UHGV virus genome: UHGV-0129071
Reading direction: 5' to 3' (one strand)
Length of the DNA stretch: 35,863 nucleotides
From: a virus
Shown piece by piece: positions 1,772-4,812 of this stretch. A program made the translations under genes and the position numbers. How positions within the stretch are numbered: the first letter of the stretch is position 1; the number at the start of each line of letters is the position of its first letter. The notes under the pieces were generated by a model. It saw only the letters and a program-made list of their open reading frames with translations. It searched no databases and had not been told where the DNA came from.

Positions 1772-2068
1772 TCAGTCATTACTGATAGCGCCATAGCGTG
1801 AGCGGTAATTACGCAGGCGCGGGTCGATATATTCAGGGAAGTGGGTATATGTGGCTTTACGGAATGGTCGGATTGATGTCTGGTAAATTCGCTCGCGTTC
1901 TTCTTTCTCTGCAAGCCATATACAGTGGCGAAATTCCTTTTCCTCTTTCGTTTCCTGCGGTAGCGACATTATCCGGTCGTAGTTTTTTCTGAATTTATCC
2001 AGCACCTCCGATACGGAATTGCCGGAACAGCGGCGCGGGTCATCCGCACCATACAGAGGCGCTGGCAT
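1772..2068 (-). CDS. hypothetical early protein (98 aa)
   Basis: ORF tightly packed between SSB and downstream genes in leftward operon. Confidence 0.45.
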
Positions 2069-2081
2069 GATTTTCTCCTGA

Positions 2082-2588
2082 TTAAATTGCGTGAATAGCG
2101 TGACGAGGGAAGGGGAGAGTTACTGGTGCAAAGGGTATATCGTCGTCAAAATCCATCGGAGGTTCGTTGTGTTGTGCTGGTGATGATTGCTGCTGTGGCT
2201 TCTGTGATTGCCTGCTGGCTGCTTGTTGTTTGCTGTCGCCAATGCCGCCAAGCATTTGCATCACGCCATTAATTCCGACATGAACCTCGGTTGTGTAACG
2301 GTCTTGCCCTGACTGGTCTTTCCACTTTCTGGTTCTCAGCATTCCCTCAAAATAAATCTGATCACCTTTTTTCACATACTGCCCCACGACCTCAGCCAGT
2401 TTCCCGGATACAGCAACACGATGCCATTCAGTCAATTCCTTTTGCTCGCCAGTATTTTTATCTCGCCATTGTTCTGACGTGGCTATTGTCAGGTTAGCGA
2501 ACGCTGTACCTGATGGTGAGTATCGAACTTCCGGGTCTTGTCCTACCCGACCAAGGATAATCACCTTATTTACGCCTCTGCTTGCCAT
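2082..2588 (-). CDS. ssb: single-stranded DNA-binding protein (SSB), with 15-aa extension after the DDDIPF motif
   Basis: OB-fold N-terminus ([23 protein letters not shown]...), Gln/Pro-rich linker, MDFDDDIPF acidic tip; typical bacterial/phage SSB architecture. Confidence 0.9.
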
Positions 2589-3296
2589 TTATGCCGCCTG
2601 TTTTAGTTCGTTAACTCTGATGTTCATTACCTGAACGCATTTAGCCTGCGCCTCCTCGTTGCCAGCCATTAATTGCCAGTCACGCTGATAACGCTCGATG
2701 AGTTTTTTCTTGTCAGTTTCTGTTGATGCATAATCGCTGAAGTCTTTCAGGATTTGTTCGCAGTCAACCGATGGAGATTTCTGGTTGGTATTTTCTGGTG
2801 ATGGTTTGTTATCTGATGCTGGGATTGCCCATCCCGGCAGCGATGGAGGGAGCCAGTAAAATCCTGTTCCATCCTTCAGTTTTGCCCTGTGCCACCACTG
2901 CTTTTTATCGAGAGATGTTTGTGCGAAACCTTCCTCAAGGTTATACAGATACCGACCGATTCCCCACTGAACGGCAGCGCGCTTCATTGCACCGGAACGA
3001 CCACCTTTGACGGCTTCTACCTGCGTGTTTTCAGCAGCATCCCATTTGGTTACCCATTCGGAATCAATCTTTATTGATATGCCGCATTCAACGCCGCCGT
3101 TGTTGGGAATATCGCGGTATTCATTGCGCCATCCTGCTTTGCCGCAAACATCGTCCAGGCGTTTCATGATTGCCCGGTTCGTTACATAAGCCAGCACCAT
3201 AGCCCACACCTTGCCATCGCGTGTTTTACCGCTTTGCTGTATTCGCCATTCGATATCTTCAGGGCCGAATGGCTCATCGAATTTATTCAAATCCAT
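2589..3296 (-). CDS. Rad52-like single-strand annealing protein (phage recombinase, Sak/DUF1071-type)
   Basis: 235-aa ORF directly upstream of ssb, not Erf- or Redbeta-like by sequence; family call from memory, position in recombination module supports. Confidence 0.65.
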   Translation of the reverse strand: MDLNKFDEPFGPEDIEWRIQQSGKTRDGKVWAMVLAYVTNRAIMKRLDDVCGKAGWRNEYRDIPNNGGVECGISIKIDSEWVTKWDAAENTQVEAVKGGRSGAMKRAAVQWGIGRYLYNLEEGFAQTSLDKKQWWHRAKLKDGTGFYWLPPSLPGWAIPASDNKPSPENTNQKSPSVDCEQILKDFSDYASTETDKKKLIERYQRDWQLMAGNEEAQAKCVQVMNIRVNELKQAA

Positions 3297-3843: not shown

Positions 3844-4812
3844 TTAGTAGGTTATTTTTGTTGCGAATACTTCGCCTTTTACGATGGCTGTTATGATATT
3901 TTTAGCAACATCTTCTGATGCGCCAACCTTGATAAGGTCAGCAAGTATTTTGTTATTTACTTCTTTCTGGTGAGCTTTATCCTTTGCTCTACGCTCTTCT
4001 TCGTCCTTGATTCTTTTTTCTTCTGCTATTCTGGCTTGCTCTTTTGCTTCAGCCTCGCGCCTGATTCGTTCAGCCTCCTCCTGTGCTTTTCGGCGTTCTG
4101 CTTCAATTGCCGCCTGCTTTTCTCTTTCAGCTCGTTCTGCTGCCTCTTTTGCTTCGCGCTGTGCTCGTTGCTCGGCTTCAATGCGTTCACGCTCTGCACG
4201 TTCCGCTGCGGCCTTAGCTTCTGCTTCTCGCCTTGCTGCTGCTTCAATTTCGGCTTTTGCCTTTGCTTCGGCTTCTGCTCTGGCTTTCTCTTCAGCTTCT
4301 CTTTTTAAGCGTTCTTCATGCTCTCGCTTTTCCTGCTCCGCTTTGAGTCTTGCCTCTTCTCTTTGGCGGTCAAATTCGCGATCCATCAAAATCGCTATTT
4401 CATGGTCAGACTCAATTTGCTTTGCGAGAGCTTCAGCTGCTGCCTTAGCTTCTTCTTCGGCTTTAATCCGCGCCTGTTCTTCCTCATAATCAGTAAGAGG
4501 CTGGCGCGCCTTGGCTTTCAGTTCATCAAGGCGATCGCGCACTGTCTTGCGGTTAGCATCAATTAGCTTTGGAATTTCCTTCAGCTCAGCAACAAGGTCT
4601 TTGCCAAGACCATCGAGATATGTTTTCGTCTGCGCAACTTTATACGCCAGAGAAGCGATCTCCTTTCTGCCCTTTGCCGTTGTGATATCAGGCACAAAGG
4701 ACATAACTTCACGTTCAACCTTTTGAAGGATTTCTTCAATCTGGTCTGCAGACTGAAATACAGTCATTGCATTTGCTTTTTCAATAACAACTAAGTCTGT
4801 TACTTCACTCAT
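3844..4812 (-). CDS. coiled-coil protein with long E/A/K/R-rich low-complexity segment (DUF1351-like companion of Rad52-type recombinases)
   Basis: 322-aa ORF; about 150 residues of AEAKA/ERAERE repeats; located in recombination module. Confidence 0.55.
   Translation of the reverse strand: MSEVTDLVVIEKANAMTVFQSADQIEEILQKVEREVMSFVPDITTAKGRKEIASLAYKVAQTKTYLDGLGKDLVAELKEIPKLIDANRKTVRDRLDELKAKARQPLTDYEEEQARIKAEEEAKAAAEALAKQIESDHEIAILMDREFDRQREEARLKAEQEKREHEERLKREAEEKARAEAEAKAKAEIEAAARREAEAKAAAERAERERIEAEQRAQREAKEAAERAEREKQAAIEAERRKAQEEAERIRREAEAKEQARIAEEKRIKDEEERRAKDKAHQKEVNNKILADLIKVGASEDVAKNIITAIVKGEVFATKITY

Follow-up and report, generated by a model that had tools for sequence, protein, structure and literature searches.

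On the minus strand of the analyzed viral DNA (hereafter the window, i.e., the whole stretch of 35,863 nt), an ssb gene of 168 codons plus stop occupies positions 2082..2588. It is flanked by two Rec-module partners on the same strand, namely the gene of a Rad52/22-family single-strand annealing protein upstream (2589..3296; Pfam PF04098, E = 8.4e-26) and abc2, encoding anti-RecBCD protein 2, downstream (1772..2068; PF11043, E = 4.3e-62). The order Rad52-like gene, ssb, abc2 recurs at at least 100 loci and, together with the homology to the ssb genes of Sf6 and ES18, places the gene among the SSB-1 proteins of the lambdoid Rec module. The TAA stop codon of ssb (2082..2084) doubles as the stop of an HNH-like open reading frame (ORF) in relatives that carry an endonuclease gene at this place; the window harbors the intact allele of this phage SSB-1-type gene, free of the insertion. 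The adjoining segment (2066..2081), which comprises a 13-nt spacer with the Shine-Dalgarno sequence AGGAG (2075..2079) and the ATG of abc2 (2066..2068), is identical to the endonuclease-abc2 junction in the phages Huey and Sf6.

The ssb product matched the Pfam family SSB (PF00436, E = 1.6e-36, residues 6 to 104) and phrog_44 (E = 1.6e-66) and is, by homology, a bona fide single-stranded DNA-binding protein. An OB fold, a disordered linker, and a DDDIPF motif were all recognized, as in other bacterial-type SSBs. For the OB-fold domain (residues 6 to 104; 2277..2573), AF2 modeled the strands E8-E114 with pLDDT values of 70 to 85, and pLDDT fell below 50 for residues 114 to 168. This part of the protein begins with a Gln/Ser/Pro-rich disordered linker (residues 113 to 142, pLDDT of <50; 2163..2252), continues with an acidic tip of 11 residues (143 to 153; 2130..2162), and ends with a tail of 15 codons (residues 154 to 168; 2085..2129) that represents a conserved, predicted disordered C-terminal short linear motif. 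The acidic tip is the same as in Escherichia coli SSB but internal. Its last residue, Phe153, is encoded by 2130..2132 on the minus strand and is followed by 15 further residues, so that the SSB-Ct is not the extreme C terminus and the Phe carboxylate is not free. The initial annotation had already pointed to the frame running 15 codons past DDDIPF up to the stop at 2082..2084, and both coordinates and peptide proved exact when compared with the sequence and the ORF list. Fifteen stop-free codons are expected by chance with a probability of (61/64)^15, i.e., about 0.49, and the length of the extension alone therefore means little; it is the conservation of the tail, not the bare open frame, that exceeds chance.

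The resemblance to the chromosomal SSB of E. coli is otherwise close (about 70% identity in the OB fold, 57% overall, a disordered linker, and the same 13-residue stretch at the tip, compared with the K-12 protein), but the E. coli protein lacks the 15 conserved residues behind the tip, ends in a free Phe carboxylate, and has a much longer linker. The SSB-1 prototypes Sf6 gp27 and ES18 gp48 belong to the same family and are likewise encoded between annealase and abc2 in the early-left operon, but an HNH gene located behind IPF makes both of them end there, whereas the tail is uninterrupted in the window. According to the survey of Zheng et al. 2025 (PMC12315714), in which the tail is not mentioned, SSB-1 proteins have not been studied experimentally. 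For another Rec-module protein, the SSB of HK620 (HkaK, "SSB-2"), C-terminal residues have been reported to recruit or stimulate the cognate Sak4 recombinase (Hutinet et al. 2018, PMC5928155). In contrast to the protein described here, the HK620 SSB is a distant, non-homologous phage SSB with a terminal NDYPPF and has neither an internal tip nor a tail. The disordered acidic C terminus of T7 gp2.5 also ends in Phe and organizes partner proteins (PMC13402713), but in this case the Phe is truly terminal and the OB-fold scaffold unrelated.

The extension is far from being a peculiarity of a single genome. The same 507-nt gene is present in the phages mEp235, HK75, and mEpX2 with 99.4 to 99.6% nucleotide identity, in the Salmonella phage epsilon34 with 88.8% identity, and also in g341c and NM-3. 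Of the 120 protein-cluster representatives most similar to the protein, about 105 possess a 15-residue tail, and their hosts comprise E. coli, Salmonella, Klebsiella, Citrobacter, Enterobacter, and Kluyvera. A tail-less query was used to fetch the nearest 80 relatives among viral contigs, and 65 of the 66 ssb ORFs recognizable in them include the tail; the junction region was detected in 429 of 5,426 complete E. coli genomes (about 8%), where it is located in prophages. In the large Salmonella cluster P0001, the tail is shortened to 12 aa. The initial annotation had considered a natural variant as one explanation and had proposed an alignment with homologues; this alignment showed that many related phage SSBs share the extension, which is thus an ordinary feature of the lineage and not an anomaly of the present genome.

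Beyond this lineage, a tblastn search with tip plus tail retrieved 104 phage records, including 39 of Vibrio, 19 of Escherichia, 16 of Salmonella, and 12 of Klebsiella phages. The divergent tails follow the pattern [AS]P[IV][GT]L[QP][FY]x[RK][HN]x[IL][HY]x[ILV]-COOH and terminate ssDNA-binding proteins of Vibrio, Cronobacter, Vequintavirinae, Phapecoctavirus, and Pseudomonas phages as well as of elements resembling ICEs. The protein from the window conforms to this tip-plus-tail module, i.e., an acidic tip, exactly 15 residues that fit the pattern, and a stop, and the module was found on different, non-homologous scaffolds. A specific association with one annealase partner was dismissed, since the tail occurs beside genes for Rad52-like, Sak4 (AAA_24), and RecT proteins, in virulent phages, and at ICE-like loci. 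Chromosomal-type SSBs behave differently: 77 of 80 stop at the tip, and the three exceptions adjoin RecT or TopB plus DUF3577. (The scan of genome contigs yielded mostly chromosomal ssb genes and served only as this baseline.) Judging from its distribution, the tip-plus-tail module is characteristic of ssDNA-binding proteins of gammaproteobacterial mobile elements, namely lambdoid prophages, Vibrio phages, large virulent myoviruses, and ICE-like elements, and it appears to be absent from chromosomal SSBs apart from these three exceptions. An exhaustive search with a 30-aa query in 1.8 billion representatives returned only 13 short fragments, no chain in the PDB search extended past IPF or contained the tail, and a literature search with peptide strings found no paper describing it.

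Within the protein, the tail is conserved about as strongly as the OB fold. Its column entropy is 0.47, compared with 0.36 for the OB fold, 0.16 for the tip, and 1.54 for the linker, and its length is always 15 residues without a single indel in 112 cluster representatives; in the adjacent linker, by contrast, indels abound. The tip is the most constrained segment of the SSB (pN/pS of 0.02 to 0.09; pooled value of the OB fold, 0.17 to 0.21). Across the most divergent lineages, the pN/pS of the tail amounts to 0.37 to 0.55 and is thus close to that of the linker (0.49 to 0.64); this codon test was performed on a deliberately divergent set and is biased against the tail. Conversely, the set derived from the peptide pattern, which provided most alleles for the analysis of synonymous diversity, is biased in favor of the tail. 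Since the two codon sets are biased in opposite directions, the statement on conservation was taken from the protein-selected set, and the codon sets provide bounds only. Synonymous codon changes with a maintained peptide pattern were observed in the tail, and we regard it as very probable that the tail peptide is under selection.

The DNA of the tail is nevertheless more uniform than its peptide would demand. Its synonymous diversity (pS of 0.11) is about four-fold lower than elsewhere in the gene (0.44 to 0.48), and part of the tail "conservation" in phages of E. coli, Salmonella, and Shigella is therefore due to recombinational homogenization and not to selection on the peptide. In 196 of 829 pairs whose ssb bodies differ by more than 15%, the tail DNA is identical, and the 45 nt of the tail are the same in the window, mEp235, epsilon34, Huey, and Sf6 despite differing flanks. 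A nucleic-acid element as the cause of this uniformity is not supported, as the checks of the tail DNA for RNA structure (z = +1.5), a promoter, a terminator, and an Rfam family were all negative.

The boundary between tip and tail coincides with a site of gene insertion. In Sf6, Huey, IME10, N7, and other phages, a free-standing HNH-like endonuclease gene is located exactly between the Phe and Ala codons, which corresponds in the window to the point between 2130 (Phe153) and 2129 (Ala154). In these alleles, IPF forms the end of the SSB, and the tail with its stop codon completes the endonuclease ORF, which has thereby taken over the last 14 to 15 codons of ssb. No copy of the HNH-like endonuclease gene is present in the 35,863 nt of the window, which contains the empty site instead (predicted homing site, 2116..2165 on the minus strand). 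Junction alignments located the HNH-like gene invariably at one point, whichever of at least four sets of flanking genes surrounds it. Apart from the endonuclease gene inserted downstream, Huey and the window-type ssb are identical over the OB region (330 of 330 positions). The empty site is recognizable by this precise presence/absence polymorphism and by donor-type substitutions beside the insertion: compared with their nearest empty allele, insertion alleles exhibit 8 to 11 substitutions within the last 36 nt of ssb and 0 to 2 mismatches outside this stretch in many pairs (e.g., [8,0,0,0] and [11,0,0,0]), and their tips read MNFDDSDIPF or MNFDDEIPF compared to MDFDDDIPF. The recoded tip next to the insertion is a signature of the homing type. 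Comparable properties, i.e., an exact-site polymorphism beside a conserved gene, an adjoining donor-type tract, and decayed copies, are known from T4-like free-standing HNH homing endonucleases such as MobE (PMC2790892), but the enzyme described here belongs to a different, uncurated family of putative HNH nucleases, lies inside the 3' end of its target ORF, of which it appropriates the last codons and the stop, and is only putatively active. A decayed endonuclease copy is present in phiKp_30. The endonuclease had no match among Pfam families and PDB sequences and was assigned to phrog_2340 only, and the HNH gene of ES18 is T7 gp7.7-like and unrelated to the tail-capturing family of Sf6.

The direction of this exchange can be deduced from the homologues. 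Most of the 77 endonuclease homologues end right after the motif HKxNKPIY, only the few that are nearest to Sf6 gp26 and Huey possess the tail, and the phrog_2340 profile ends before it. A derivation of the tail from the 3' terminus of the endonuclease gene, which a deletion would have fused to ssb, was accordingly rejected, as homologues elsewhere lack it; nor is the tail an endonuclease remnant, given its near-universal and co-diverging presence in the SSB clade and beyond. The endonuclease shares the reading frame of ssb in Sf6 and Huey but not in a subgroup with a 14-nt junction, and a general in-frame arrangement was therefore not maintained. The comparison of alleles thus indicates that the endonuclease gene is inserted into a tail-bearing ssb in sister phages, and it is almost certain that the tail is a native conserved module and that the window carries the empty-site allele. 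The boundary of tip and tail is the point at which the HNH-like gene is inserted in sister phages, and the tail is a portable module of ssDNA-binding proteins from mobile elements; neither was accessible to the initial annotation.

The uniformity of the tail DNA and its link to the insertion site could alternatively mean that the peptide is a functionless passenger. The 45 nt would then serve as a recombination joint and as the right-hand homology arm for homing, with ssb bodies joined on one side and abc2, exonuclease, or HNH modules on the other, and their translation would be incidental. The identical tails of strongly divergent ssb bodies, the reduced pS, and the constancy of the 45 nt in variable surroundings are in line with this proposal, and nuclease genes are indeed known to mark exchange boundaries of phages (PMC10448857), a tie to mosaic boundaries that the HNH gene described here shares. 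Furthermore, Sf6, Huey, and ES18 live with a tail-less SSB. However, the peptide pattern and the exact number of 15 codons persist where the DNA has diverged, as in Klebsiella, Vibrio, Acinetobacter, Pseudomonas, and Cronobacter phages and at ICE-like loci, and even on non-homologous scaffolds. The absence of indels from the tail next to an indel-rich linker and the missing nucleic-acid signals likewise speak against a mere passenger, which we consider improbable. Even if the tail were functionless, the locus would still be a clean case of a free-standing endonuclease gene that seizes the last codons of another gene.

The interpretation that we favor, with a rough probability of 60%, is that of a native two-part C terminus, in which a host-identical tip is followed by a conserved disordered tail that would cap the tip and provide a new C-terminal motif. 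The tail would render the Phe of the tip internal and thus remove the alpha-carboxylate that SSB-interacting proteins of the host clamp with arginine; the phage SSB could then coat the ssDNA of recombination and replication without canonical engagement of host nucleases and helicases, and the hydrophobic/basic C terminus of the tail may offer a different docking site. Since the tail is common to unrelated mobile elements, the partner is probably a conserved host factor. Capping, and with it the block of host-partner binding that the initial annotation had envisaged for a natural variant, is suggested by published SSB-Ct structures, in which the carboxylate of the C-terminal Phe is anchored by Arg in RecO and DnaG, and similar pockets are present in ExoI, chi, and PriA (PMC3152348, PMC5872125). 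For the specific proposal that the tail caps the tip and blocks canonical docking, we would give slightly less than even odds. An argument against it is that the internal tip retains the strongest purifying selection in the protein, which would be odd if capping abolished all of its functions. Moreover, phages with a tail-less SSB are viable, i.e., Sf6 and Huey, which lost the tail to the endonuclease, and ES18, which lost it altogether; the tail is therefore dispensable, at least in the laboratory. A more far-reaching version remains tentative and is rather unlikely in its entirety: the tail may be an undescribed second linear motif specific to mobile elements that caps the tip and adds a signal for a conserved host factor (sliding clamp or AAA+ unfoldase), and the highly conserved DNA that encodes it may be a target to which an uncurated HNH family homes specifically as it accompanies the module from one phage to other, unrelated ones.

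Two functions that dispense with this combined arrangement have to be weighed as well. The tail could act as a C-terminal signal for proteolysis or remodeling, or could be clipped off to unmask the tip, and would in this way set the level or timing of the SSB and also of the endonuclease. The C-terminal end RRKKAI of MuA, which is basic and terminates in "AI," is a ClpX C-motif-2 signal. The structure models predicted the tail to be disordered on both the SSB and the endonuclease, so that it resembles a detachable appendage on two unrelated proteins; the extreme conservation of the tip would be expected if it is eventually exposed, and no feature is conserved better among distant variants than the extreme C terminus [IL][HY]x[ILV]. 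Nevertheless, a simple degron leaves the conserved N-terminal half AP[IV][GT]L[QP][FY] unexplained, and RHAIHAI resembles RRKKAI only loosely. We therefore regard a role as degron or pro-peptide as quite improbable.

Just this N-terminal half is the basis of another proposal, according to which P-[IV]-[GT]-L-[QP]-[FY] represents a modified form of the hexamer that binds the beta sliding clamp, and the tail is a second docking motif, through which DNA coated with SSB would acquire the host clamp or a different conserved factor. The hexameric clamp-binding motif is QLxLxL, e.g., QLSLPL in Hda. Compared by eye with the consensus, PVTLPF and PIGLQY fit hexamer positions 2 to 6 (hydrophobic, small, Leu, any residue, aromatic or Leu) but carry Pro instead of the near-universal leading Gln. 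The presence of the same tail on unrelated mobile elements points to a conserved host partner, as this proposal assumes, but it leaves the C-terminal half of the tail, which is conserved as well, without an explanation, and binding of the clamp appears very doubtful. Finally, the initial annotation had contemplated a sequencing error or the loss of a stop codon. An artifact of this kind, whether an error of sequencing or assembly or a stop behind IPF that was lost recently in this genome only, has nothing in its favor beyond the prior assumption that IPF is where SSBs terminate and is practically excluded by the comparative data, because the identical extension occurs in dozens of independently sequenced phage isolates, in hundreds of prophage assemblies, and in many genera.

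The preferred interpretation of a capped tip with a new terminal motif touches on a general rule for SSBs, namely that partner proteins dock only if the acidic tip forms the free C terminus. A large natural class buries a host-identical tip under 15 residues, and it spans prophages in about 8% of the complete E. coli genomes, many Vibrio phages, large virulent myoviruses, and ICE-like elements. The insertion and empty alleles represent natural "tail off" and "tail on" SSBs in near-isogenic phages and thus put the function of the tail within direct reach of experiments. Should the tail prevent or divert the binding of partners, mobile elements would have in it a general means of keeping host nucleases and helicases away from their ssDNA intermediates or of recruiting something else. 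In this case, the finding would be relevant for recombineering, in which the compatibility of SSB and annealase limits portability, for phage-host conflict, and for inhibitors of the SSB-Ct pocket.

The ssb gene of the window (2588..2082, minus strand) is located between a Rad52/22-family annealase gene (3296..2589, minus strand) and abc2 (2068..1772, minus strand) in the recombination module of a lambdoid or P22-like early-left operon. Its 168-aa product is a bacterial-type SSB (Pfam PF00436, E = 1.6e-36) with 57% identity and an identical acidic tip to the E. coli K-12 protein. The tip (codons 143-153, 2162..2130) is internal: Phe153 (2132..2130) is followed by a tail of 15 codons (154-168, 2129..2085) and a TAA stop (2084..2082), and the extension, peptide, and coordinates reported in the initial annotation match the ORF exactly. 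The gene belongs to the bacterial-type SSBs except for the feature that the tip is the C-terminus, which its product lacks, and to the lambdoid "SSB-1" type. A 2025 survey that makes no mention of the tail says of this type that it has "not been studied experimentally" (PMC12315714). Since 15 stop-free codons have a chance probability of (61/64)^15, i.e., about 0.49, the open frame is without significance on its own and gains it from sequence comparison. An Rfam match to a frameshift site (RF01097) inside the OB-fold coding region (2380-2405, minus strand; 21.6 bits versus a gathering score of 43, E = 0.33) is most likely due to chance. A 322-aa ORF at 3844-4812 (minus strand), rich in Glu, Ala, Lys, and Arg and coiled-coil-like, is probably the counterpart of the protein labeled "TolA" in mEp043, a related phage.

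The 507-nt ssb gene is 99.4 to 99.6% identical in phages mEp235, HK75, and mEpX2 and 88.8% identical in the Salmonella phages epsilon34, g341c, and NM-3; the annotation reads simply SSB throughout. A 15-residue tail is present in about 105 of the 120 best protein-cluster representatives, with carriers from E. coli, Salmonella, Klebsiella, Citrobacter, Enterobacter, Kluyvera, Pluralibacter, and Phytobacter, and 7 of the 120 end at IPF; the junction region occurs in 429 of 5,426 complete E. coli genomes. The nearest 80 viral-contig relatives, retrieved with a query devoid of the tail, contained 66 recognizable ssb ORFs, 65 with the tail and one in the endonuclease form discussed below. Because so many related SSBs carry it, the extension is, by the initial annotation's own reasoning, an ordinary, widespread lineage feature. 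The natural variant proposed there is therefore upheld; a sequencing error is refuted by the many phages, cluster representatives, and E. coli genomes that have the extension in common, and a private stop-codon loss by its recurrence in the representatives and genomes counted here. In the Salmonella representative P0001 (cluster of 588 members) the tail is shortened to 12 residues; the last three may be dispensable, or this lineage may have a defective tail.

In the sister phages Huey and Sf6, SSB terminates at NFDDEIPF or NFDDSDIPF and is followed by a gene for a Cys/His-rich protein of 155 to 160 aa, a putative HNH endonuclease, with the tail at its end; the GenBank note of Sf6 remarks on 14 residues common to this protein and an "E. 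coli SSB." The 45-nt tail DNA (CCAGTAACT...GCAATTTAA) is identical in the window, mEp235, epsilon34, Huey, and Sf6. On its 3' side the window agrees with Huey and Sf6 (Shine-Dalgarno sequence and ATG of abc2), and mEp235 and epsilon34 have an Rv2179c-like 3'-5' exonuclease gene. This 549-nt Rv2179c/DnaQ-like gene is absent from the spacer between the ssb stop and the abc2 ATG (2069-2081), and the direct order of ssb and abc2 resembles Huey and Sf6 minus the endonuclease gene. The first idea, that the tail is the relic of a deleted endonuclease gene, was ruled out by family-wide comparison. Most of 77 endonuclease homologues end, variably, shortly after HKxNKPIY, the tail being confined to those nearest to Sf6 gp26 and Huey, and the PHROG profile of the family ends before it; the tail hence is part of ssb, into which the endonuclease gene has inserted. 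Its insertion point lies between Phe153 and Ala154, as some copies retain the Ala codon (PDEAPVTL). The tail pattern occurs 133 times: after an SSB tip in 103 cases, at the end of an endonuclease ORF in 28, and in frameshifted ssb genes in 2. The locus reads (Rad52-like or Sak4)-SSB-(optional HNH)-tail and stop-(optional exonuclease)-(Abc2 or orf94), with the HNH gene always in the one slot between SSB and the tail. The endonuclease model (mean pLDDT of 94; 57 to 78 over the last two ten-residue blocks, tail included) predicts that the tail is disordered there too.

The comparison of 25 unique insertion alleles with the nearest of 60 alleles lacking the insertion revealed many pairs that are identical save 8 to 11 differences within the last 36 nt of the gene. 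Mismatches in the last 36 nt, positions 37-72, positions 73-150, and the rest amount to 8, 0, 0, and 0 for Huey, 11, 0, 0, and 0 for allele L128, and 8, 0, 1, and 0 for allele L289. The endonuclease cassette brings its own recoded tip, and its ssb stop often overlaps the Shine-Dalgarno sequence of the endonuclease (TAGGAG). Three alleles without endonuclease (L022, L037, and L125) have the tip typical of insertion alleles (MNFDDEIPF or MNFDDDIPF, then APVTL) and represent either the source of the cassette tip or footprints of precise endonuclease loss. Klebsiella phage phiKp_30 (locus L298, 1880-2554) contains a decayed cassette, in which SSB ends with NFDDSDIPF before a shortened ORF starting MKICSRCH, and the tail DNA is kept out of frame and unannotated. 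Phage ES18 (locus L299, 1501-2575) has an unrelated HNH endonuclease, the T7 gp7.7-like gp47, in the same ssb-abc2 slot; its SSB ends with NFDDEIPF, and the tail DNA is absent before abc2. Public data also contain hybrid ORFs (P0131, P0134, P0144, P0173, P0180, and P0183), in which either the N-terminal part of SSB is fused to the endonuclease C-terminus and tail or the N-terminal part of the endonuclease is fused to the Rv2179c-like exonuclease; they resemble scars left by deletions in the HNH slot. No copy of the endonuclease gene was found in the window, whose ssb is thus, as judged from sequence, a predicted empty site of a homing-type HNH endonuclease, i.e., an intact allele without the insertion. 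In morffagbaw (L305, 1547-1987), nieznany (L306, 1656-2150), and PsgM04F (L307, 1647-2141), the same endonuclease family directly follows and overlaps tip and tail; it starts within the tail-coding DNA in another frame, so that about 30 nt are dual-coding.

A tblastn search with the 28 aa of tip and tail detected 104 phage records (90 at >=80% coverage), e.g., from Vibrio (39), Escherichia (19), Salmonella (16), and Klebsiella (12) but also from Cronobacter, Proteus, Acinetobacter, Serratia, Hafnia, and Pseudomonas. The module terminates canonical SSBs of Vibrio V039C (ending IPFAPVGLQYGRNLLHVI) and Cronobacter JK004, a non-canonical OB-fold SSB of E. coli phage morffagbaw (ending IPFASVGLQYGKHRIYAL), and phrog_4477 proteins (310 to 413 aa) of virulent myoviruses. 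The phrog_4477 proteins include PVP-SE1 gp39 and those of Acinetobacter ABPH49, Phapecoctavirus nieznany (gp212), and Pseudomonas phage PsgM04F; loci from Vequintavirinae, Phapecoctavirus, and Pseudomonas phages are L302 (355-1584, PVP-SE1 gp39), L300 (340-1581), L306 (752-1684), and L307 (722-1675). They have no Pfam match and are presumably unrecognized ssDNA-binding or hub proteins. Of 80 ssb loci used as a baseline, mostly chromosomal and each time taken from another species, 77 encode an SSB that ends at the tip. The three exceptions have 15-residue tails (IGFGYDCSRVAIHAL, IGFGYGVPKSAIHAL, and APIGLQHPAHFIYSI) and neighbor RecT or a TopB-like topoisomerase with DUF3577, the latter a neighborhood typical of integrative conjugative elements. 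SSBs with a divergent tail (IGFGY...AIHAL) follow DUF3577 in L148 (779-1321) and L169 (2495-3037), the topoisomerase being shown only for L169; given this ICE-like arrangement, the module is not confined to phages. The consensus of all tails seen is [AS]P[IV][GT]L[QP][FY]x[RK][HN]x[IL][HY]x[ILV]-COOH. The tail is a conserved, disordered, mobile-element-specific peptide that can be separated from SSB.

Over 112 tail-bearing representatives, mean column entropy was 0.36 in the OB fold, 1.54 in the linker, 0.16 in the tip, and 0.47 in the tail, which is free of gaps. AF2 (109-sequence alignment) modelled the OB fold but assigned a pLDDT of <50 to residues 114-168, which suggests that the tail is a short linear motif and not a folded cap. 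Codon sets, which serve as bounds on constraint, gave a tail pN/pS of 0.37 over 60 unique alleles and of 0.43 to 0.55 in a set deliberately chosen for divergent tails (tip, 0.06 to 0.09; OB fold, 0.17 to 0.21); on these values the peptide is under moderate constraint, far below the tip. Its length and residue pattern persist where the DNA has diverged. Synonymous diversity is 0.11 in the tail versus 0.44 to 0.48 in OB fold, linker, and tip, and tail DNA is identical in 196 of 829 allele pairs with >15% OB divergence. This uniformity is not explained by RNA structure (z = +1.5), a promoter, a terminator, or an Rfam family. The simplest reading is that recombination at a mosaic joint has homogenized the tail DNA, or that it was co-converted as the endonuclease gene moved, in line with a broader pattern of nuclease genes at the borders of exchanged phage segments (PMC10448857). 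For phages of E. coli, Salmonella, and Shigella, nucleotide identity accordingly overstates selection on the peptide, and the tail might alternatively be a largely neutral passenger of the recombination joint.

Solved complexes and mutagenesis have established that Pro176-Phe177 becomes buried in host partners, where an arginine holds the terminal carboxylate in place (R132 of RecO and R452 of DnaG); ExoI, chi, and PriA have comparable pockets (PMC3152348, PMC5872125). A 15-residue continuation of the internal tip should therefore prevent or weaken docking, and by this analogy it is plausible that the tail blocks host binding, one of the possibilities raised in the initial annotation. A capped SSB could let the mobile element cover its recombination or replication intermediates without calling in host exonucleases and helicases, which would fit the anti-RecBCD theme of the Rec module, and the new C-terminus might recruit another partner. 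Phage recombinases do recognize the C-terminal residues of the SSB with which they work, as in HK620 Sak4/SSB (PMC5928155), but the window-type tail accompanies more than a single annealase family. Against a cap count the tip, which is the most strongly conserved segment though internal, and the viability of Sf6, Huey, and ES18 with a tail-less SSB. Alternatively, the tail could be a clamp-binding-like motif, PVTLPF/PIGLQY being comparable to QLSLPL, or a degron or removable pro-peptide.

A search of open-access texts turned up neither a paper with these peptide strings nor any account of an SSB-Ct that is extended or capped, or of an HNH gene associated with ssb in this way. The comparisons add a portable tip and tail module on ssDNA-binding proteins of mobile elements and a putative homing-type HNH gene at the tip/tail junction. 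Together, the module and the putatively junction-targeting HNH gene make the tailed SSB a directly testable variant of SSB.
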